From: Candidatus Nanoarchaeia archaeon
Lineage (GTDB): Archaea > Nanobdellota > Nanobdellia > Woesearchaeales > DATDTY01
DNA: 64,000 bases
NCBI GenBank assembly: GCA_035290625.1
Contig: DATDTY010000033.1
Location: forward strand, 20,482-84,481
Direction of reading: 5' to 3'
The notes beneath the pieces are model-generated. The model did not search any database, was not told where the DNA came from, and worked only from the letters and a program-made list of their open reading frames with translations. The stretch's first letter is position 1. Each line of letters opens with the position of its first letter. Position numbers and translations under genes: made by a program. Shown here in pieces: positions 8,310 to 50,753 of the stretch.

Positions 8310-9638
8310 TTACTTCAGCACCGCATGCTGGCCTTCAGCAAGGAGGTGGATATTCTTTTTCCAGCCCATCTCTTTACAGAGGCCTGCAAGGGACTTCCTC
8401 ATCTTTTCTTCCCCATGAGAAGGGATGATGTGCTCTGGCTTAAGCATCTCAAGAAGATCCTGAAGATCCTGCCTTGCCGCATGGCCTGACACATGGATGC
8501 CTTTAAAGATTCTGATGCGCCGGTGCTTCAGATCCCTTTCCAGATGTTCCCGGTTCTTCTCGTTTGTTGGCGTGGGGATGACATTACAAGAGAAAATCAC
8601 CTTATCCCGGTGGTCAAGCCGAAACTTGAAGACATCCCTTGCAATCTTTGCCAATGTTGCTTTTGGCTCGCCCTGATGGCCTGTGACTACGATCAGGTAT
8701 TTCTTCTTCCTAGGCTGCAGCTCATTGAGCCTCTTGCGGATATTATTACCATACTTGACAATCTCTATCTCCTTTGAGAAGTGGACAATCCCGACCTCTT
8801 CAGCAGCATTGACGTATTTTGCCAGCGATCTGCCTAAAAAGATAACCTTCCGGCCAAGCTTTTTCCCAAGCTCGATGATGGATTTGAGCCGTGCAATATG
8901 CGACGAGAATGTTGTCACGAGGATTGCCTGCACCTCTTTCTCGTCATCCAGGATGGCGTCCCTCAACATTTCCTTTGCCACAGACTCTGAGGGCATCTTG
9001 CGGTCATCATCAGCATAGGTTGACTCCACAACCAACGCATACACTCCCTTCTGGCCAAGCTGCCTTAGCCGCTTCAGATCAGGGGTTTTTCCAAGAGTCG
9101 GGCTCATATCGAACTTGAAATCGTTTGCATACACGATGATGCCGTGCTTTGTATGGAGCGCAACCATCGCTGTCTGCGGCGTGGAATGGGTTACTGTGAT
9201 AAACTCTGCGGTGATGTCTTTTGTTATCTTTATGGATGACCCCGTGTTCACGGTCTTTATCCGGTTCTTGAACGGTATTTTTTCATCCCTGATGATTGCG
9301 CGAAGCACTGCTGCTGTGAAGGGTGTGCAGATGATTGGGGCCTTATAGCGTCCTGCAAGAAAAGGGATGGCGCCGACATGGTCGAGATGAGCATGAGACG
9401 GTATGATTGCCCTTATTTTGTCCTTCCAATGCTCTATCACCGAAAGGTCAGGAATTGCCTTTACCTTGATAAGATCCTCAACTTCAAACTTCTTGATGTC
9501 CTCATCCTCTGTCAGCTGGATGTAACTCTCAAGATGAATCCCGATATCAAACACAATCACGTCATCGTCAATCTTTATCGCTGTGCAGTTTCTTCCGACA
9601 ACATCGTAACCGCCGACTGTTATAATCTCAACTGCCAT
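8310..9638 (-). CDS. rnj: Metallo-beta-lactamase / beta-CASP ribonuclease, archaeal RNase J-like (start at MAVEIITVGG)
   Basis: HAHLDHVGAIP (HxHxDH) motif. N-terminus matches archaeal RNase J (MAVEIIxVGG). About 440 aa. Confidence 0.7.
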   Translation of the reverse strand: MAVEIITVGGYDVVGRNCTAIKIDDDVIVFDIGIHLESYIQLTEDEDIKKFEVEDLIKVKAIPDLSVIEHWKDKIRAIIPSHAHLDHVGAIPFLAGRYKAPIICTPFTAAVLRAIIRDEKIPFKNRIKTVNTGSSIKITKDITAEFITVTHSTPQTAMVALHTKHGIIVYANDFKFDMSPTLGKTPDLKRLRQLGQKGVYALVVESTYADDDRKMPSESVAKEMLRDAILDDEKEVQAILVTTFSSHIARLKSIIELGKKLGRKVIFLGRSLAKYVNAAEEVGIVHFSKEIEIVKYGNNIRKRLNELQPRKKKYLIVVTGHQGEPKATLAKIARDVFKFRLDHRDKVIFSCNVIPTPTNEKNREHLERDLKHRRIRIFKGIHVSGHAARQDLQDLLEMLKPEHIIPSHGEEKMRKSLAGLCKEMGWKKNIHLLAEGQHAVLK

Positions 9639-9819
9639 AGGTTTCCTGCTTTTTGAGAAGTATAAAAACCTATTGTTCAAGCTCTTTTGGCAGAATAAAC
9701 TTTGTGCCTTCTTCACCTGTGTTCAGCAGTTCTACAGGGATCTCTTTACCACTTCGATTGCCCTTTCTACACCAGCGCAGTATCCTCTGGGGCTTGCAAG
9801 AATTATCTTTTGGACCATG

Positions 9820-10983
9820 TTAACAGATACCAGCCCTAGATTTCCTGATTATCTCCACTGCTTTGTCAATCTCTTGTCTTGAGATATCAAGGCTTGGGAA
9901 CAAAACTACTCTTCCATCGAATGCAGAAATGATCAATCTATCCTCCAAGCATCGCTGCTGAATTCCGGGATCCGGCTCATCGAAGCCAATGCACAGCCCC
10001 TTTCCTTCAGGCCTGAACTCTGACAGCCTTTTCATGAGATATGCTCCGCTTTCAGCAGCCTTCGCGACAAGGCCCTTCTGCTGAATATACTCGATGTTTG
10101 CAAGGCAAGCTTCTACAGAAAATGGGTGCCAGCCAAAGGTTGAATAATTGCTAAAATCAAAACGCATGGGCTCAGCGACTTCTGGTCTGGCTATTGTTGC
10201 ACCAATCGCGCCATAGCCTGAGCTCATTCCTTTTGCGATTGTGATGATGTCTGGCTCCAGACCGAAATGCTCGAAGCCGAACCATTTTCCTGTACGGCCG
10301 AATCCTGTTGCAACCTCATCGCAGATGAACAGGGTGTCTGTTTCGCTGCATGCTTCCATGATTCTGTTAAAGAACTCTTTTGGAGGCACTATGACTCCCA
10401 GATTACAGATGATTGGTTCTGAGATGAATGCAGAGATTTCTCTCTTCTTGATGAGTTTTACAGCCTCTTCTGTTGTTTTTTCCCAATCTTTTGCGTCGAT
10501 TTGGAGATAGTCTTCTGAGAACTTTCCAAAATGCAGCTCATGGGCCGGGATTTTGACAAGCGAGAGGCAGGCAATGGATTGGCCATGGTATGCACCTTTA
10601 AAGGCCAAAAACTTCCTCCTTTTATTGTATGCACGCGACATCTTTAATGCAATCTCAACTGCTTCTGTTCCTCCTGTTGCTCTAAAGCAGGCCGTCTGCC
10701 TGCCGATAAGCCTGCTGAGCTTTTTTGCGAGGTCTTCCCATCGCTCATAGATATAGGAAGGCGGAACGTACTCAGGCCCTTTAAATCTCTGAATGGCATT
10801 CCTGATCTGGCTTTTTCTCCAGCCTGCGTTGCCAACACACCACCCCATTGTGAAATCCAGGTATCTCTTTCCGTTTTTGTCAATGAGGTAACTTCCCTTA
10901 GAATCCGCAACCTCTATTGGGTAGGGAGGAGCATCCCTAAACAAGAATTCCCTTGTATCAGTTTTTTTGCGCATCAAGTCCAT
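9820..10983 (-). CDS. Class III PLP-dependent aminotransferase (start at MDLMRKK; the longer ORF would read through the tRNA-derived repeat)
   Basis: [14 protein letters not shown] and [11 protein letters not shown] motifs. Confidence 0.75.
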
Positions 10984-11007
10984 GTAGACAATTTTTAATA
11001 TTAAGAG

Positions 11008-11075
11008 TGCGGGGAGCAGGCAGCGCAACTCACTTCGTTCGTTGCTGGCCTGCTCTCCTCGTTCATTTCATTCAC
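11008..11075. repeat. tRNA minihelix-like element, 68 nt. Begins with a copy of the 13 3'-terminal nt of the adjacent tRNA (RC gcggggagcagg). Forms a hairpin with gcctgctctcc.
   Basis: Direct repeat of the tRNA 3' end 55 nt from the true tRNA end. About 90% identical to the units at 30357..30498, with compensatory differences. Confidence 0.55.
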
Positions 11076-11239
11076 TGCGGGGAGCAGGATTCGAACCTGC
11101 GTAGGCACTAAGCCAACAGATGGCCCGCCTGAGTAGTTCATCAGACCTGGGTGAGGACCTCAACACTCATGACTTGAGTATGGACGTTTTAGCGCCTGTC
11201 GCCAAACTCTGTCCCGTTTGGCCACTCCGGCATCCCCGC
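11076..11239 (-). tRNA. Intron-containing class II tRNA (Leu-like). Long variable arm UGGCUUAGUGCCUAC and discriminator A. 164 nt, implying an intron of about 80 nt. Anticodon unresolved.
   Basis: Acceptor GCGGGGA/UCCCCGC. D arm CCG-GAGUGGCCAAA-CGG. Anticodon stem ACAGA/UCUGU separated by 87 nt. T arm GCAGG-UUCGAAU-CCUGC. Near-identical scaffold to the tRNA-Leu at 30499..30582. Canonical 37/38 splicing would give the loop GUUUGGA. Confidence 0.6.
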
Positions 11240-11285
11240 ATTGTGCGGAGTAGAACGCCCCGTGTTTTAAATATGTTGCTTTTTG

Positions 11286-11525
11286 GGCTCAGTAGAAAGT
11301 CAGTCGGCAGTGGCTTGCAAGCGAGCAAGGCGAGCTTGCTCGCTAGCCACCGGCTCGCTTGTGCTTCCTTCACTGTTTGCTGACACCCCCGAAGGTGCTA
11401 AAAAGAGCCATGCTCTTTTGGCACATCAAAACGCCAGAGGGCGTTTTGATTGGGCCAACCCTCTGTCAGCGGTGCTATAAAAGTAAATAAGCTCGCAGAA
11501 AGGATGCCGGACTTTCTACTGAGCC
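11286..11525. mobile_element. MITE-like element family 1, copy 2 (240 bp; carries an extra internal palindromic insertion). Same 16-bp terminal inverted repeats. Flanked by tttttg.
   Basis: Terminal repeats identical to copy 1. The internal insert gcaagcgagcaaggcgagcttgctcgc is itself palindromic. Confidence 0.7.
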
Positions 11526-11560
11526 GTTTTTTGGAACTCTTCTTATCCAGAAATGCGGTC

Positions 11561-11941
11561 TTATGTCAAAATCCCAAGCTTGCTCTCAATCGCATTCAAC
11601 TCTTCTTCCAGGCGGTCTAACTCAGAAACCGGCTTTGGCCTTGGCATTTGAGGCCGCCTGGCTCTTGGCTGGTCATCGATCTTCTTCTTTAGCTCTGCCC
11701 TCTTTGTATCCACATTCTTTCTTATGTGATGAACTGGCAGCGCATCTTCGAGGCTCTTGCCAAGCTTGCTAATCTCTACCATCAAGTTTTTGAGGATGAA
11801 CACCTCTCTTATCTTCATCTCCTGCGTATACTGGAAAGCTTCGTAGCGCTGCAAAGCTGTGATAATCTCCTTAGAGCCCTGGAGCAGCGTCCTTCGTATC
11901 GCAATGGGATCCTCAATACTCACAAACATCGTATCTTCCAT
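11561..11941 (-). CDS. Hypothetical coiled-coil protein (126 aa)
   Basis: ORF. Third gene of a tandem set of small coiled-coil ORFs. Confidence 0.4.
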   Translation of the reverse strand: MEDTMFVSIEDPIAIRRTLLQGSKEIITALQRYEAFQYTQEMKIREVFILKNLMVEISKLGKSLEDALPVHHIRKNVDTKRAELKKKIDDQPRARRPQMPRPKPVSELDRLEEELNAIESKLGILT

Positions 11942-20933: not shown

Positions 20934-21078
20934 GGCTCTGTAGAAAGCCAATCGGCATCGGGCTCGCCTGTGGGGAGATAGGCGATTGCTGACACCCCCG
21001 AAGGGGTCTACCCCCTGTCAGCAGTGCTGATGAAGCTGAAGAAGCTCGCAAAAATGATGCCGGGCTTTCTACAGAGCC
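20934..21078. mobile_element. MITE-like element family 1, copy 3 (145 bp). Terminal repeats GGCTCTGTAGAAAGCC / GGCTTTCTACAGAGCC, with two compensatory base changes relative to the other copies. 7-bp flanking gtgaatc.
   Basis: A->T and T->C changes in the left arm are matched by T->A and A->G in the right arm. Internal 9-bp duplication gaagaagct. Confidence 0.7.
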
Positions 21079-30013: not shown

Positions 30014-30361
30014 TCACCCTATAATCCGTATGCGCCTCCCTTTGATTGGCTCCTTCATCAAGGCCTGGATTGAGATGGCCTTCGCGTTTGCTTCGGATAT
30101 CTTTCTCAGCGCGCCTTCTGAGAACCTCCATGCAGCTATGGTCATCTTATGATTCAGCGGGCCTGTCCCAAGGACTTTTCCCGGAACAACGACCGTATCA
30201 TCCTCGGCAGTGTACTTATTTAGACGAGACAGATTCACGATCCTCCCCCTTCTCGTTGATTTGTCCAGGTCTTCGGCAATTCTTCTCCAGAGAGGGGCTT
30301 CCCTGCCCAGCTTCCTGAGTTCACTTATCAGGCTTTCGAGATTTGGGTTTGTTTTAGCCAT
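30014..30361 (-). CDS. rpl18e: 50S ribosomal protein L18e (eL18); start at MAKTNPNL
   Basis: Archaeal L18e pattern. Position in the conserved cluster. Confidence 0.75.
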   Translation of the reverse strand: MAKTNPNLESLISELRKLGREAPLWRRIAEDLDKSTRRGRIVNLSRLNKYTAEDDTVVVPGKVLGTGPLNHKMTIAAWRFSEGALRKISEANAKAISIQALMKEPIKGRRIRIIG

Positions 30362-30498
30362 GATGTATGCGGGAGACAGGCAGCGCAACTCACTTCGCTC
30401 GTTGCTGGTCTGTCTTCCTCGCTCATTTCATTCACTGCGGGAGACAGGCAGCGGAATTCGCTGCGCTCATTCCTGGTCTGTCTCCCTTGTCTTTTGAC
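30357..30498. repeat. Two tandem tRNA minihelix-like units (about 70 nt each). Each ends, in tRNA sense, with the 13-nt tRNA-Leu 3' end CCUGUCUCCCGCA. The first overlaps the L18e start codon.
   Basis: tgcgggagacagg occurs three times in direct orientation (30357, 30431, 30499). Units are about 90% identical to 11008..11075. Hairpin arms gggagacaggc / gtctgtcttcc. Confidence 0.55.
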
Positions 30499-30582
30499 TG
30501 CGGGAGACAGGATTCGAACCTGCGTAGGCACTAAGCCACATGGTCCTTAGCCATGCCCGTTTGACCGCTCCGGCACTCCCGC
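30499..30582 (-). tRNA. tRNA-Leu, class II, anticodon read as AAG (loop CUAAGGA), 84 nt, no intron
   Basis: Acceptor GCGGGAG/CUCCCGC. D arm CCG-GAGCGGUCAAA-CGG. Anticodon stem CAUGG/CCAUG. Variable arm UGGCUUAGUGCCUAC. T arm GCAGG-UUCGAAU-CCUGU. Discriminator A. Confidence 0.75.
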
Positions 30583-30593
30583 AAACCGGACTG

Positions 30594-31367
30594 TCACTTT
30601 TTTAGGAGATCTTTCACTTCCTCTGCATTTTTCTGTATGATGCCGAGCGCGGCGTCAACCATTTCCTGAATCGTCAGCTGCCCGAATGGCTCTATAATCA
30701 TCACAATCTCGTTCTTATCTTCTCCGAAAACGATGTGCTTGTCGCTGTAGCTCGGATTGCAGGCATGGCACATGACGAGTTTTTCTTTGTTGACCGTCGC
30801 AGAGCTCTCTTTGATGTCAAAAATATCAAGCGGGAAACTCTTTGCGTATTCTGCATCTATCTTTCCGTTGACCTCTACTGTGGGCCGATACCTGTAGGTC
30901 ACATGCCCGGGAGACCACTTCGCGTGGATTTTTCCAGAGCCGAGCGTTGCAGTTCCCTCAACCTCAATCTCCTGGCCCTTGAGAAGCTTCACGATCGGGG
31001 TGTTTGGGAAGACTGGCCTGATTTTTGGATCTTTGAATTTCATCTCGCTCGCCATCACTACGCTCGGGCCTTTTCCAGACAGCGCCATCTTGACCTCGCA
31101 TCTGGCGCACCCTTTGCCGCCGCATTTGCACTCTTCCCTCTTGTTGTAGGTCTTCAGGTCGGATTTCAGCACAACCAATCCCAGTCGGTGGGCAATCATC
31201 TCGTCGAACAGTATGGAGCTGTTTTTTCTGAATTCAACGTCTTCCACTGCAAGTGTCGGCACTTCCATCATAGTATACCTTCGAATCATATTTGCAACTG
31301 CTGGAGTGATCCCATGCAGCAGCAGGACTGCCTTATCTTTCTCGCTCTTGAATACTTTGGCATCCAT
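30594..31367 (-). CDS. rpoD: DNA-directed RNA polymerase subunit D (Rpb3 homolog); start at MDAKVFK
   Basis: Archaeal RpoD pattern including the Cys-rich insert CKCGGKGCARC. Confidence 0.8.
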   Translation of the reverse strand: MDAKVFKSEKDKAVLLLHGITPAVANMIRRYTMMEVPTLAVEDVEFRKNSSILFDEMIAHRLGLVVLKSDLKTYNKREECKCGGKGCARCEVKMALSGKGPSVVMASEMKFKDPKIRPVFPNTPIVKLLKGQEIEVEGTATLGSGKIHAKWSPGHVTYRYRPTVEVNGKIDAEYAKSFPLDIFDIKESSATVNKEKLVMCHACNPSYSDKHIVFGEDKNEIVMIIEPFGQLTIQEMVDAALGIIQKNAEEVKDLLKK

Positions 31368-33361: not shown

Positions 33362-36064
33362 ATGGTTTTAAGAAAATTAACTAAAGAACAGGCGAAAGAA
33401 GAAGTTAAGAAATTAGTAGACAAATATGTCAGGATAGTTGAATCCGGCTCTATTAAAAGATACAAAGAAGAGGATACAAAAGCGGAGTTTATCGAGCCGT
33501 TATTTGAAGCGTTAGGTTGGGATGTCAGAAATACAGAAAATGATGATGAGGTAGTAAGAGAAGAAAAAATCTCAAAGGGCAGAGTAGATTACTCTTTTAG
33601 GATTAATGGAATACCTAAATTTTTCTTGGAAGCAAAAGCACTAAAAGAGGATTTAGACAATATCAAATTCGTGGAACAGGCAGTAAATTATTCCTGGCAC
33701 AAAGGCTGTACCTGGGCAGTCCTTACCGATTTTGAAGCTATCAAGATTTTTAATGCTGAATGGAAAAGCGCAAACCCTTTACAGGCACAATTCGGGCAAA
33801 CCTTGCCTTGTCAATTATTCTTAGAAAAATTTGATACTTTGTGGCTTTTATCAAGAGAAAGCTTTGAGAAGAAACTTCTTGATATTGAAGCAGAAAAATG
33901 GGGTAAAAAAATAAAAAAAACAGCTGTTGATAAACAGCTTTTAAGTGATTTGACAAGATTCAGGGATTTGCTAAACAAGAATATTCTAAAAAATAATTCT
34001 TCAAAGAATATTTCTGGCGATGAATTAGACGAAGCCGTCCAGCGCATAATTGACAGATTAATCTTCATCAGAACTCTTGAAGATAAAGAATTAGAAGCCC
34101 CCATGTTGCAGTCAGTCATCAGGGAGGATTTAAACAAAAGAATCTACAAAAAATTAAACCTCATTTTCAGAAAAATCGATGACATTTACAACAGCAAACT
34201 ATTTACTCCTCACTTATGCGAAGATTTGGACGTAGATGATGAGGTTTTATCAAAGATAATTGGTGGATTGTTTGCTACAACCGATAATACTGTGCGTTAT
34301 GACTTTTCTGCTATTGACGCTGATGTTTTAGGCAACATTTACGAGCAATATTTAGGGCATATTCTAAAGAAAACTGATAAAAGAGCCAAATTAGCAGAGG
34401 GGAAAGCACACAGAAAAGAACAGGGAATATATTATACTCCCACTTATGTAGTAGACTACATTGTTAAAAATACAGTTGGTGAATTAGCTAAAGACAAAAA
34501 ATTTGATTTAAAGAATGTCAAGATTTTAGACCCTGCCTGCGGCTCTGGCTCATTCTTAATGAAAGCATTTGATTATCTTGTCACTCTTGACAAAAAGAAG
34601 AATGGGGAAGTCGACCAGACAAAGCTTGATTTAACTGGGGCTGGCGCTTCATACGGGAGGAAAGTGGAGATATTGAAAAATAATATTTTTGGCGTCGATT
34701 TAGACCCTAAGGCTGTAGAGATAGCTCAGTTGAACTTACTATTGAAAGCAGCAGAGAAAAAACACAGACTGCCAACACTACAAGAGAATATTAAGGTAGG
34801 AAATTCATTAATTGATGATTCTGCTATTGCAGGGAATAGGGCTTTCAAATGGGAAGAACAATTTAAGGATATTATAGCTGATGGTGGGTTTGATGTGGTG
34901 ATTGGGAATCCGCCTTATGTCGAAGCAAGGCAAATAGGACAAAAGTATGTTGATTTTTATAGGGGAAATTTTAAAACCGCCGGTAATAGAATTAATACAT
35001 TCTCTCTATTTATTGAAAAATCAATTAGTTTGTTAAGTGAACATGGCTTATTCGGGATGATAGTGCATAAAAATAGCATACGTTCAAATGATTACATAAA
35101 ATTAAGACAATTTGTTTTGGATAATTGTAAAATATTAAAGATACTTCCAATAGGCGCAGGTGTTTTTGAAGGAGTAACTGGAGAAATGGTTATTCTAATA
35201 TTTCAGAAAGATAGCAATATGAAAGAAAGATTGAAGAATATTGTTTTTCACGGTGGAAAAGATTCAATGTCAAACAAGACTTCTTACCAAAAATTATCTC
35301 AAAGAATCTTTTATGAAATTCCTGGTAATAGATTTAATGTTTATCTAAATGAAACGAAAATAAAAATATTAGAAAAAATAAAAAGCGAGAGTATTGAGCT
35401 TAAAGAAATTGCTTATACTAAACAAGGGATAATTGTTGGAGACGAAGAAAAATATGTCAAAAAAACGAAAGAATCTGAAAAATATAAACCTGTTTTGCGT
35501 GGTAGGAATATATCTAGATATAATATAACCTTTGGCAATGAATATTTATTTTACGTACCAGGTACAGCAGTACTAAAAAGAGGAAAAACACCAGACTTAT
35601 TTGAGAAACCAGAGAAAATTTTGACACAACATGTTTCCGGGAGAATTATAGCCGCTCTGGATTGTGATGAGTATTATGCTTTGCAAACAATTAATCTTAT
35701 TTTCTCAAAGGGTAAAATTTCAAATAAATATCTCTTGGCACTACTCAACAGCAAATTAATTAATTTTTATTACGATAGCTATTTTAATATGGGTTCTGAG
35801 TTTACTACGGCAGTTGCAACAGAAAATTTAGATTTATTACCTATAAAACAAATTCCGGAAAAACAACAGCCCATTATTAAACTAGCAGATAAAATGATTT
35901 CTCTTAACAAAAATCTTAATGGATTAAAAGACAAGCAAACCGACGAAAAAGCCCGTCTTGAGAAAGAAATCCAGAAACTAGATTCTGAAATTGACGAAGA
36001 AGTTTACAAATTGTACGGCATAACAGAAGAAGAAAAGAAGATAATTGAGGAGAGCTTGAAATGA
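33362..36064 (+). CDS. Type IIG (MmeI/Eco57I-like) single-chain restriction-modification enzyme. N-terminal PD-(D/E)xK nuclease, central gamma-class N6-adenine methyltransferase, C-terminal target-recognition region.
   Basis: GRVDYSF ... FFLEAKAL nuclease motif. DPACGSGSFLM (motif I). VIGNPPYV (motif IV). 900 aa. About 33% GC, against roughly 50% in flanking genes. Confidence 0.75.
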   Translation: MVLRKLTKEQAKEEVKKLVDKYVRIVESGSIKRYKEEDTKAEFIEPLFEALGWDVRNTENDDEVVREEKISKGRVDYSFRINGIPKFFLEAKALKEDLDNIKFVEQAVNYSWHKGCTWAVLTDFEAIKIFNAEWKSANPLQAQFGQTLPCQLFLEKFDTLWLLSRESFEKKLLDIEAEKWGKKIKKTAVDKQLLSDLTRFRDLLNKNILKNNSSKNISGDELDEAVQRIIDRLIFIRTLEDKELEAPMLQSVIREDLNKRIYKKLNLIFRKIDDIYNSKLFTPHLCEDLDVDDEVLSKIIGGLFATTDNTVRYDFSAIDADVLGNIYEQYLGHILKKTDKRAKLAEGKAHRKEQGIYYTPTYVVDYIVKNTVGELAKDKKFDLKNVKILDPACGSGSFLMKAFDYLVTLDKKKNGEVDQTKLDLTGAGASYGRKVEILKNNIFGVDLDPKAVEIAQLNLLLKAAEKKHRLPTLQENIKVGNSLIDDSAIAGNRAFKWEEQFKDIIADGGFDVVIGNPPYVEARQIGQKYVDFYRGNFKTAGNRINTFSLFIEKSISLLSEHGLFGMIVHKNSIRSNDYIKLRQFVLDNCKILKILPIGAGVFEGVTGEMVILIFQKDSNMKERLKNIVFHGGKDSMSNKTSYQKLSQRIFYEIPGNRFNVYLNETKIKILEKIKSESIELKEIAYTKQGIIVGDEEKYVKKTKESEKYKPVLRGRNISRYNITFGNEYLFYVPGTAVLKRGKTPDLFEKPEKILTQHVSGRIIAALDCDEYYALQTINLIFSKGKISNKYLLALLNSKLINFYYDSYFNMGSEFTTAVATENLDLLPIKQIPEKQQPIIKLADKMISLNKNLNGLKDKQTDEKARLEKEIQKLDSEIDEEVYKLYGITEEEKKIIEESLK

Positions 36065-36921
36065 CTGAAAAAGATAAAGCTCTCGTTGTCTTCCAAGACA
36101 GGAAAATAAGGAGAGTATGGCATCAAAACCTGTGGTTTTTTTCAGTAATTGATATTGTAGCTATTTTGACGGAACAAGAAGACCCGTATACTGCAAGAAA
36201 ATACTGGAATAAGCTGAGCCAACGGCTAAGAGAAGAGGGAAGCGAAGTGGTGACAAATTGTCACCGGTTGAAACTTCCGGCAGAAGATGGAAAGCTAAGA
36301 GAAACCGATTGCGCTAATACTGAAAGCATATTTAGGATTATCCAATCAATTCCATCAAGGAACGCAGAACCATTCAAAAGATGGCTTGCTAAAGTTGGGT
36401 ATGAGCGTGTGCAGGAAATAGAAAACCCTGAACTAGCGCAGGAGCGCATGAAAGAGCTTTATGAGCAGAAAGGATATTCAAAATCATGGATTGACAAACG
36501 GCTGAGAGGAGTAGCAGTAAGACAAGATCTCACTGATGAATGGAAGAAGAGAGGAATTGAAAGCCAAGACGATTTTTCAATACTCACTGCGGAAATATCA
36601 AAAGCCACTTTCGGCATGACTCCAAGTGAATACAAAAAATTCAAAGGGCTTACAAAGGAAAACCTAAGAGACCATATGAGGGATTTAGAACTCATATTTA
36701 CCATGCTAGGAGAAGCATCAACTGCGGAGATTGAACGCATAAAAGACCCTGTTAAGTTCGCTGAGCACAAAAAAGCATCTAAGGAAGGTGGGAATGTAGC
36801 GAAAAAAGCAAGACTCGAGCTAGAAAAAAAGACGAAAAGCCCGGTTGCGAGCAGAGAAAATTACCTTGAAGAGCCTGAAAAAGAAAAGCGAAAAAGGCTA
36901 CCTGAACCTGAAAAGGATTGA
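36061..36921 (+). CDS. Bro-N-like N-terminal domain plus DinD-like (DNA-damage-inducible protein D family) C-terminal domain; paralog 1
   Basis: ALVVFQDRKIRRVWHQNLWFFSVIDIVAIL (Bro-N / KilA-N-like). KGLTKENLRDHMRDLELIFTMLGE resembles E. coli DinD KGLKKNQKILDHMGSTEL. ATGA overlap with the RM stop. Confidence 0.5.
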   Translation: MTEKDKALVVFQDRKIRRVWHQNLWFFSVIDIVAILTEQEDPYTARKYWNKLSQRLREEGSEVVTNCHRLKLPAEDGKLRETDCANTESIFRIIQSIPSRNAEPFKRWLAKVGYERVQEIENPELAQERMKELYEQKGYSKSWIDKRLRGVAVRQDLTDEWKKRGIESQDDFSILTAEISKATFGMTPSEYKKFKGLTKENLRDHMRDLELIFTMLGEASTAEIERIKDPVKFAEHKKASKEGGNVAKKARLELEKKTKSPVASRENYLEEPEKEKRKRLPEPEKD

Positions 36922-36931
36922 TGATAAGATA

Positions 36932-37003
36932 GGTGAGAAAGTCCACAAGCTCTACGGCATAACTGATGAAGAAAAGAAGCTTATTGAGGATTCATTAAAA
37001 TGA
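36932..37003 (+). pseudogene. Relic 3' fragment (24 codons, GEKVHKLYGITDEEKKLIEDSLK*) of a second RM gene. About 75% nt identity to 35992..36063. Preceded by in-frame stops.
   Basis: Direct comparison: gtccacaagctctacggcataactgatgaagaaaagaagcttattgaggattcattaaaatga versus gtttacaaattgtacggcataacagaagaagaaaagaagataattgaggagagcttgaaatga. The same ATGA stop/start overlap with the downstream gene is present. Confidence 0.6.
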
Positions 37004-37245
37004 CTCAAAAAACACTTGACGGAAAAGACGTTGAAGAGCCAAGTATTTGGTCAGATGGCTCTTTTGCTGAAACTCTTGGTCCGTCAGATATGAAAGTAAA
37101 GATGCGTACTTTTCATATGAAACACGATGAGGAAATGGATTTCAACTGCTCAAATTGCAAGGTTAAAATTTCAGCTCATAACAAGGACTGGCACAATGGA
37201 ATGTGTGATAAGTGTTTCAATAAGGAGTTTTTCCCAGAGGATTAA
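37000..37245 (+). CDS. Small Cys-rich (zinc-ribbon-like) protein, 81 aa
   Basis: CSNCKV ... CDKC motif. Confidence 0.4.
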   Translation: MTQKTLDGKDVEEPSIWSDGSFAETLGPSDMKVKMRTFHMKHDEEMDFNCSNCKVKISAHNKDWHNGMCDKCFNKEFFPED

Positions 37246-37247
37246 AA

Positions 37248-38099
37248 ATGGACAAAGACAAGGCTCTCGTAGCATTTCAGGATAAGAAAATCAGGAGGAT
37301 TTGGTACAATCAGGAATGGTTTTACTCGGTTATTGGCATCGTTGAAGTTCTTACAGACAGCCCAACTCCTAGGCAGTATTGGGGAAAAGTCAAAGACAGA
37401 GAATTCATAGCTCTTGAACTGTCCCCAATTTGGGTACAGTTGAAATTGGCAGCAGAAGATGGCAAATTGCGGTTTACGGACTGTGTTAACACCAAAAATG
37501 CCTTTAGGCTAATTCAATCCATTCCTTCAAAGAAAGCAGAGCCTTTCAAACAATGGCTTGCGCAATTGGCTCAAGAGCGCATTGAGGAGATAGAAAATCC
37601 TGAATTAGCCCAAGATAGGGTGAAAGAATACTATGAACTCAAAGGTTATCCGAAGGATTGGATAGACAAGCGTCTGAGAGGCATTGCCATACGGCAGGAA
37701 TTGACTGATGAATGGAAAGATCGAGGCGTCACAGAAGAAACAAATTTTGCAATCCTCACAAACGAGATAAGCAAAGCAACTTTTGGAAAGACTGTTCAGG
37801 AATACAAGGAACTCAAAGGCCTTAAGAAAAAGAATCAAAACCTCAGAGACCACATGACAGATTGGGAACTCATATTCAATATGCTGGGAGAAAAGGCCAC
37901 AACCGACATCACAAGGACAAGAGACGCACAAGGATTTGAGGAAAATAAGCAAGCTGCGAGAAGAGGAGGCCAAATAGCCCATAATGCGAGAAAAGAACTG
38001 GAACAAGAAACAGGCAAATCCGTGATCTCAAAAGATAATTTTCTAAGCCTTACTGAACAGAAAAAGCTCGAAAACAAGAAGAAAAACGACAAGAAATAG
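37248..38099 (+). CDS. Bro-N-like plus DinD-like protein; paralog 2
   Basis: ALVAFQDKKIRRIWYNQEWFYSVIGIVEVL. KGLKKKNQNLRDHMTDWELIFNMLGE. Roughly 55% identical to paralog 1 over the aligned regions I compared by eye. Confidence 0.5.
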   Translation: MDKDKALVAFQDKKIRRIWYNQEWFYSVIGIVEVLTDSPTPRQYWGKVKDREFIALELSPIWVQLKLAAEDGKLRFTDCVNTKNAFRLIQSIPSKKAEPFKQWLAQLAQERIEEIENPELAQDRVKEYYELKGYPKDWIDKRLRGIAIRQELTDEWKDRGVTEETNFAILTNEISKATFGKTVQEYKELKGLKKKNQNLRDHMTDWELIFNMLGEKATTDITRTRDAQGFEENKQAARRGGQIAHNARKELEQETGKSVISKDNFLSLTEQKKLENKKKNDKK

Positions 38100-50611: not shown

Positions 50612-50753
50612 GGGCTCAGTAGAAAGTCAATTGGCATCAGACTCGCTTGCGCTCGTATTCGTGTATGCTGCCCCCCGAAGTTGGCAACTCTGTCAGCAGT
50701 GGTTATGACTGCAAAGAAGCTCGCAAAAATGATGCCGGACTTTCTACTGAGCC
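50612..50753. mobile_element. MITE-like element family 1, copy 4 (142 bp). 16-bp terminal repeats identical to copy 1. Perfect 8-bp target-site duplication gtattgag (50604-50611 and 50754-50761).
   Basis: Terminal repeats and abutting direct duplications read directly. Lies upstream of gyrA. Confidence 0.8.

Follow-up and report, generated by a model that had tools for sequence, protein, structure and literature searches.

Genomes are already known to contain direct repeats of tRNA 3′ ends and minisatellites built from hairpins, as well as tRNA-like processing elements. Here we describe short palindromic units located behind both tRNA-Leu genes in a stretch of 64,000 nucleotides from contig DATDTY010000033.1 (the window). 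The final 13 nt of every unit exactly repeat the 3′ end of the tRNA gene in front of it, and the unit also contains an arm complementary to that repeat. These units have a modular build, with direct copies of the tRNA end as borders; their copy number varies, they are young, and they are specific to tRNA-Leu. Our searches found no precedent for a gene-less cassette of 63–68 nt that sits at two tRNA-Leu genes, has arms matched to the tRNA and varies in copy number by whole units. The structure is real and unusual, and the evidence points to a young unstable repeat rather than to a conserved mechanism. The reading we prefer, at about an even chance, is that the units represent a young, lineage-restricted, cassette-like palindromic DNA repeat at tRNA-Leu 3′ ends.

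Attachment (att) repeats at tRNA 3′ ends resemble the units in that the direct duplication stops at the end of the tRNA gene, copies stand in tandem and loss between repeats is precise. The units differ in having inserts of only 50–55 bp without genes, no integrase among the genes checked nearby, no attP partner in the viral collection scanned, and an arm that matches sequence private to each tRNA. Integron attC sites are, like the units, imperfect hairpins of 60–70 nt in which an unpaired spacer separates an outer from an inner stem and the loop is variable; structure is kept more than sequence, and cassettes are gained and lost. By contrast, the units lack the GTTRRRY/RYYYAAC core, cassettes with open reading frames (ORFs) and an IntI gene, and their arms derive from the tRNA (CCTGYYYCCCGC); with neither R″/R′ core sites nor an integrase in the genes scanned, an attC identity was rejected.

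Plant mitochondrial t-elements and similar tRNA-like signals share with the units an acceptor-imitating helix beside an mRNA end in a polycistronic transcript, at a position that suits RNase P and RNase Z. The units differ from them in lacking a T-loop, in their imperfect acceptor pairs, in being non-conserved and in their variable copy number. Other tRNA-like processing signals include the tRNA-like structure upstream of haloarchaeal 5S rRNA and the mascRNA of MALAT1. A further parallel is provided by hairpin minisatellites, together with palindromic inserts that are precisely excised by slippage between direct repeats (Tn5/Tn10) and the correction of quasi-palindromes. Units and hairpin minisatellites have in common the head-to-tail arrangement, whole-unit variation, a hairpin flanked by short direct repeats and complementary arms that need no selection on RNA; unlike the latter, the units are anchored on a functional tRNA end, occur at two tRNA-Leu genes and have locus-specific arms.

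The casposons of Methanosarcina insert at tRNA-Leu 3′ ends with a 13–14-bp duplication, occur as tandem insertions and leave small remnants (solo terminal inverted repeats) (PMC4779613). Target, duplication size and tandem copies are features that the units share. However, casposon duplications start at CGCA and run downstream of the tRNA (PMC4779613), whereas the repeat of the units lies inside the tRNA and ends at CGCA, and the units have neither terminal inverted repeats nor a Cas1 or PolB gene. A casposon or mini-casposon was rejected on the position of the repeat, the lack of inverted ends and the absence of Cas1 from the genes scanned.

Palindromic units at two tRNA-Leu genes

The preliminary description placed one copy of an element of roughly 70 nt behind the first tRNA-Leu gene and two behind the second. 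The first interval proved exact to the nucleotide. At the second locus, given as 30357..30498, two units are indeed present, but the array ends at 30368 rather than at 30357. All locus features are given on the minus strand, with the window as the reference; handles of the form L0nn denote the contigs and loci compared with it.

11076..11239 (minus strand): tRNA-Leu1, read directly and recovered by ARAGORN with introns allowed; class II body, TATA-like box upstream
11008..11075 (minus strand): unit 1, 68 nt; minimum free energy −28.5 kcal/mol, z = −5.1, covariance model 93 bits; tail 11075..11061, 5′ arm 11060..11048, apical hairpin 11045..11025, 3′ arm 11021..11009, 13-nt tRNA-end copy 11020..11008
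30499..30582 (minus strand): tRNA-Leu2, anticodon AAG (ARAGORN); final 13 nt at 30511..30499
30436..30498 (minus strand): unit A, 63 nt; z = −4.5, 73 bits; 5′ arm 30488..30476, apical stem GGAAT/ATTCC, 13-nt copy 30448..30436
30368..30435 (minus strand): unit B, 68 nt; z = −3.5, 94 bits; 5′ arm 30420..30408, apical stem GCAAC/GTTGC, 13-nt copy 30380..30368

The discriminator base of tRNA-Leu1 is followed at once by unit 1, and that of tRNA-Leu2 by unit A and then unit B. All three units end in a 13/13-nt copy of the 3′ end of their own tRNA (CCTGCTCCCCGCA at Leu1, CCTGTCTCCCGCA at Leu2), and in all three the repeat stops at the discriminator base, position 73. BLAST likewise aligns positions 56–68 of unit 1 onto 11088..11076, the final 13 nt of tRNA-Leu1. 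This copy had been described as opening the element; its exactness holds, and counted from the tRNA end it closes the unit, which is a choice of phase only. The reverse complement of the 13-nt end forms the 5′ arm of each unit, about 28 nt upstream of the copy, and in unit A 9 nt of the tRNA end are matched by their exact reverse complement, GGGAGACAG, within the arm. The insert between the 13-nt repeats measures 50–55 nt and has no ORF. The three units are homologous throughout (unit 1 versus B, 90% over 59 nt; A versus B, 87.5% over 48 nt). A decayed tRNA copy was rejected as their source, since beyond the complementary arm the non-repeat part has no similarity to either tRNA-Leu gene. Outside the co-varying positions both the units and the tRNA bodies are ~95% identical; with similarities thus equal, the order of unit transfer and tRNA divergence is not inferable, and dating one against the other was abandoned.

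Both tRNA-Leu genes carry units (2/2), versus none of the three other tRNA genes (0/3). tRNA-Gly, tRNA-His and tRNA-Val on the same contig are followed neither by a copy of their 3′ end nor by its complement. The core pattern has no further occurrence in the 64 kb (0 expected by chance), the covariance model run with filters off found no further unit copy, and ~109 kb of fetched loci contained nothing beyond homologous copies.

The units fold as RNA with z-scores from −3.5 to −5.1, and none of 200 shuffled sequences folded as well. An outer helix of 12–13 positions leads through a 2×3 internal loop into a 5-bp apical stem, tandem G·A/A·G pairs, two more pairs and a triloop; RNAalifold independently gave the same structure as our own pair count. 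The preliminary description was right that the loci differ where the tRNAs differ and that the arms compensate. The three differences between the tRNA ends, CTC versus TCT, are matched in the 5′ arms by GAG versus AGA. Altogether, 5/17 pairs are altered on both sides versus 0.8 expected, a number reached in 0/500 shuffles; three of them lie in the outer helix and two in the apical stem (GCAAC/GTTGC versus GGAAT/ATTCC). That each element evolves in concert with its own tRNA is correct as an observation.

The hairpin had also been equated with the acceptor and T-stem minihelix of the tRNA. The complementary arm and the hairpin are present, and the discriminator A and the 3′ strand of the units are identical to the tRNA. 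The mimicry is not faithful, however. Units 1 and B have an A·G mismatch at the equivalent of 2:71 and an A·C mismatch at the equivalent of 5:68, pairs 1:72 and 2:71 are absent from unit A, and in place of the T-loop TTCGAAT there is a 2×3 internal loop, a 5-bp stem, tandem G·A pairs and a 2-bp triloop hairpin. Near unit 1, Rfam reports a tRNA match only at the genuine T-arm of tRNA-Leu1. Both DNA strands of the window copies fold equally well, and thus there is no strand-specific RNA signal.

tRNA-Leu1 contains ~80 extra nt inside the anticodon arm, because of which the gene escapes ARAGORN at default settings as well as Rfam. With one canonical intron the anticodon would be UUG (Gln), at odds with the class II Leu-like body, and with two introns (31/32, 37/38) it would be CAA or GAG; no bulge-helix-bulge (BHB) motif could be defined in this gene. 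As for the AAG anticodon of tRNA-Leu2, A34 in tRNA-Leu is unusual among archaea, where GAG is the normal anticodon, and the relative L012 has GAG at the locus matching tRNA-Leu2.

Each array is followed by a protein-coding gene on the same strand:

9820..10983 (minus strand): class III aminotransferase gene (PF00202), starting 24 nt past unit 1
30014..30367 (minus strand): 6-nt spacer tacatc (30367..30362) and L18e gene (ATG 30361), first gene of an L18e-L13-S9-RpoN group that matches PF00828, PF00572, PF00380 and PF01194

The spacer between unit 1 and the aminotransferase gene includes an A/T-rich TATA-like stretch (ttaatattaaaaa). At the other locus, rpoD, the last gene of an S13-S4-S11-RpoD group, has its stop codon 11 nt ahead of tRNA-Leu2, across a spacer at 30593..30583. 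Contrary to the preliminary description, there is no overlap between the last unit and the L18e start: 6 nt separate unit B from the ATG, and only an over-long ORF with a TTG start (30388) enters the unit. Neither a TATA box nor a Shine-Dalgarno sequence is visible ahead of the L18e ATG when the sequence is read directly, unlike the gene behind tRNA-His (~44996), which has a TATA-like box and a GGAGGGGTGG Shine-Dalgarno sequence. The lack of room for a promoter and of a Shine-Dalgarno sequence makes a tRNA-mRNA co-transcript likely at the L18e locus. The S13-S4-S11-RpoD group, tRNA-Leu and the L18e-L13-S9-RpoN group thus appear to form one fused transcription unit punctuated by a tRNA.

Variation among strains and occurrence in relatives

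To judge by the labels of the nearest named L18e and aminotransferase homologues, the source of the window is a DPANN archaeon of the Woesearchaeota/Pacearchaeota type. The window sequence was met again in many groundwater metagenome assemblies. The following alleles were distinguished:

Leu2, tRNA-A-B: window, L004, L023, L025–L030, L036 and L038–L043 (L023, L025, L030 and L042 cut within the tRNA)
Leu2, tRNA-A-B′ or tRNA-A-B″, with 6–7 substitutions in B: L002, L001
Leu2, tRNA-B′ only: L024
Leu2, tRNA-A only: L037
Leu2, strongly diverged unit: L003, where the contig begins inside the unit
Leu1, one unit: window, L014–L018
Leu1, at least two identical tandem units: L032, where the contig begins inside the first

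All gains and losses involve whole units and are exact at the 13-nt repeats, the junction ...CCCGCA tacatcATG being kept every time. As in a minisatellite, the units stand head to tail and their number differs between closely related genomes at both loci. The substitutions of the B variants, none of them compensated, affect tail, 5′ arm and loop, and the hairpin of unit B is eroded in L001 (z = −1.6) and lost in L003 (z = +1.8). Given these uncompensated 5′-arm changes, purifying selection does not maintain the outer hairpin.

The conservation of unit A among strains was considered as evidence of selection and dropped. Recombination has made mosaics of the strains, with breakpoints at the tRNA or close to it, and their comparison is therefore unusable as a conservation test. 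From rpoD through unit B, L004 matches the window at 100% identity, but in L18e at only 88%. L029 and L041 differ at the rpoD end, which is diverged, and by two D-loop changes in the tRNA, yet their units and L18e are identical to the window. Across window 30360–30660, breakpoints in these three contigs cluster at the tRNA and the unit array. Furthermore, 9/9 contigs found with the exact 124-aa L18e ORF are shorter than 2 kb, suggesting that assemblies often break at the array.

In the nearest relatives with a different L18e (L005, L012 and L013; L18e 62–64% identical), tRNA-Leu is located directly upstream of L18e and there is no unit; the spacer between the two genes is A/T-rich or 37 nt long. 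The aminotransferase relative L035 (72% identical) has no tRNA-Leu upstream and is hence uninformative for synteny at Leu1. A pattern scan of species-representative genomes gave 0 matches and an L18e scan of these genomes only one distant Methanosarcinales locus, whereas the pattern scan of Joint Genome Institute (JGI) metagenomes gave two chance matches in unrelated coding DNA and nothing real. Judged from these comparisons, the units are confined to one species-level DPANN lineage.

Competing explanations for the units

Under the DNA-repeat explanation that we favour, each cassette, with a period of 63–68 bp, is bounded by a direct duplication of the last 13 bp of the tRNA, resembling an att site or a target-site duplication. 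The observed variation would result from arrays growing and shrinking as the 13-bp repeats recombine or as replication slips between them, and slippage is known to be favoured by a hairpin between direct repeats. Alternatively, a trans-acting site-specific recombinase could drive the process. The 3′ arm would match the local tRNA as a copy of it, and the 5′ arm would be kept complementary at the level of DNA or of the hairpin, either through templated correction of the quasi-palindrome or because the cassette needs the hairpin to propagate. Cassettes inside tRNA-mRNA co-transcripts may be tolerated because each rebuilds the original junction between ...CCCGCA and the downstream gene. The data demand no host function.

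Co-variation of inverted arms also occurs elsewhere in the window, in a family of miniature inverted-repeat transposable elements (MITEs) with four intergenic copies (1636–1771, 11286–11525, 20934–21078 and 50613–50753), 20-bp terminal inverted repeats (GGCTCAGTAGAAAGTC...) and 8-bp target-site duplications. Copies measure 136–145 bp, apart from the one at 11286–11525, which reaches 240 bp through two internal insertions and lies just upstream of the tRNA-Leu1 promoter; the stretch 11276–11560 folds with z = −5.9. The family has no transposase in the window and no Rfam match. The copy at 20934–21078 has complementary changes at two positions in both inverted ends, and arm co-variation is therefore not by itself evidence of selection on RNA here. 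The units themselves were rejected as MITEs or other DNA transposons: their 5′ tail is unpaired and not complementary to the 3′ end of the insert, and copies occur only at tRNA-Leu genes.

Several observations weigh against the DNA-repeat explanation. Pfam scans of the larger window ORFs revealed no integrase, transposase, Cas1 or reverse transcriptase, and the precomputed annotations for ~20 kb of flanking contig list no such recombinase-type gene either, so that the insertion step lacks a candidate enzyme. The integrase search suggested earlier was negative for the genes checked across the window and its flanks. The explanation also gives no origin for the first cassette, whose 50–55-nt insert has neither terminal inverted repeats nor similarity to the tRNA body. 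There is no zero-unit allele among ~25 contigs, and at least one unit may thus be needed. Unit A is invariant (63/63 nt) wherever present, although mosaic recombination between strains confounds this observation. Finally, the apical hairpin has compensatory changes at 3–4 pairs and conserved tandem G·A pairs, and one apical G·U pair is workable on the sense strand only; these features hint at constraint on a folded single strand, possibly RNA.

The rival that survives best, although we regard it as unlikely, is that the units function as processing signals resembling tRNA, an archaeal equivalent of the t-elements in plant mitochondria. RNase P would cut at the 5′ side and RNase Z after the GCA tail, leaving the L18e mRNA with a 6-nt leader, nearly leaderless. 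The rpoD-tRNA-Leu2-unit B-L18e layout calls for co-transcription, the 3′ arm and tail are identical to the RNase Z site of the tRNA, the arms co-vary with the tRNA, and every allele retains at least one unit directly ahead of tacatcATG. Archaeal RNase Z needs an acceptor stem, tolerates loss of the T-arm and accepts non-tRNA substrates (PMC7479834), and t-elements provide a precedent for tRNA-like processing signals (PMC1920247). RNase P or RNase Z may cleave the units. However, RNase Z also requires a mature 5′ end (PMC7479834), and RNase P would first have to accept a hairpin with an imperfect acceptor-like end (2:71 and 5:68 mismatched in units 1 and B, 1:72 and 2:71 missing in unit A) and no T-loop. 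In addition, unit 1 precedes a gene with an apparent TATA-like promoter of its own. Processing had been one of two options offered in the preliminary description: the gene layout is compatible with it, but conservation is not, since any one unit is dispensable, relatives that share the gene order have none, and the hairpin of unit B is degraded in L001 and lost in L003.

The other option offered there, serial duplication of att sites, we consider improbable. Under this scenario, a virus or plasmid whose attP matched the 3′ end of tRNA-Leu would have integrated, in places serially, and then lost nearly all of its DNA, leaving fused ends between attL and attR; the expected source element would carry GTGAATGAAATGA... 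and ...GTTGCGCTG at its two ends. The repeat architecture agrees with it, as the identity block stops exactly at the tRNA 3′ end, like that of tRNA-targeting integrative elements, and so do the tandem arrays and the precise unit gain and loss, such as att × att excision would produce. Targeting of tRNA-Leu 3′ ends and tandem integration are also known from archaeal elements, casposons included (PMC4779613). By contrast, neither an integrase nor any other element gene or remnant was found nearby in the genes checked, and exact-pattern scans of one viral collection, IMG/VR, gave no match to the unit core or the unit 3′ part; four matches to the tRNA end were unrelated tRNAs or fragments, none with a unit. 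The same 50–55-nt remnant at two loci and in tandem (three places) would require repeated identical deletions, the 13-nt block, short of the T-loop, is small for the core of a tyrosine integrase, and an arm brought in by an element would not match the private sequence of each tRNA.

These readings are not mutually exclusive, and a selfish cassette excised by the host merges the favoured DNA repeat with the processing signal. Such a cassette would insert at tRNA-Leu 3′ ends, copy the last 13 nt and be harmless since its hairpin imitates the acceptor helix and RNase P and RNase Z excise it from the co-transcript, restoring a near-leaderless L18e mRNA. We give this combination the same low probability as the att scenario. 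If true, it would represent an intron-like, ‘self-cleaning’ insertion that is removed by tRNA end-processing rather than by splicing, and a nascent archaeal analogue of t-elements.

Still less probable is a structured module of the 5′ untranslated region that does not mimic tRNA, either a 5′ hairpin shielding the mRNA from a 5′–3′ exonuclease after the tRNA has been cut off or a hairpin that binds a protein through the apical stem with its tandem G·A pairs. The apical stem co-varies, its GA...GA motif is kept in all units but that of L003, and in B-type units the 3′ half (alignment columns 45–68) is invariant between strains while the 5′ half is variable. An RNase J-like beta-CASP nuclease gene stands beside the aminotransferase gene, a matter of adjacency only. 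Such a module gives no reason for the identity of the 3′ arm with the tRNA end and is at odds with the varying copy number, with the loss of the hairpin in some strains and with two downstream genes that are functionally unrelated. It also has no Rfam family, k-turn geometry or C/D or H/ACA boxes: a gathering-threshold Rfam scan of the window and permissive scans of 10900–11350 and 11230–11600 returned nothing relevant, with only noise at E up to 10.

The remaining candidates were rejected as well: a box C/D, H/ACA or k-turn RNA (by inspection no CUGA box, pocket or 3-nt bulge beside the G·A pairs, and no Rfam match), a BHB intron or split tRNA (by inspection no two 3-nt bulges with a 4-bp helix between them at the repeat junctions, and a first copy that already completes the tRNA) and a group II intron remnant with a GUGAA start and an arm resembling an exon-binding site (much too short, target duplication not expected). 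Genes for Nop5 and fibrillarin do occur in the window, yet the C/D reading fails.

Surrounding genes and biological meaning

The beta-CASP nuclease gene, of RNase J-like/aCPSF type, is located at 8310..9716 (minus strand), directly downstream of the aminotransferase gene, and is followed by PCNA. Its product might bear on the fate of the 5′-monophosphate mRNAs left by tRNA excision, a thought prompted by adjacency only. Elsewhere in the window, a low-GC island at 33362–38099 (plus strand; GC 0.37 versus ~0.48) contains the gene for a type IIG restriction-modification enzyme of 900 aa, which has Eco57I/MmeI-like methylase, TaqI_C and HSDR_N domains, and genes for two paralogous proteins with Bro-N domains, whose upstream regions are duplicated (35981–36072 and 36920–37011). 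It is probably a horizontally acquired defence island, without a recombinase.

Should the units be nothing more than unstable repeats, they would show that a tRNA 3′ end can seed a hairpin minisatellite, that co-variation of arms can arise without a conserved function and that such arrays break metagenome assemblies. Should an RNA-level reading be true, the units would show how tRNA-processing enzymes can be put to use in setting mRNA ends in an archaeon whose tRNA and mRNA genes share fused operons, and how a new insertion can be made harmless. Either way, tRNA-Leu 3′ ends are a specific recombination target in this DPANN lineage, an echo of the Methanosarcina casposons.

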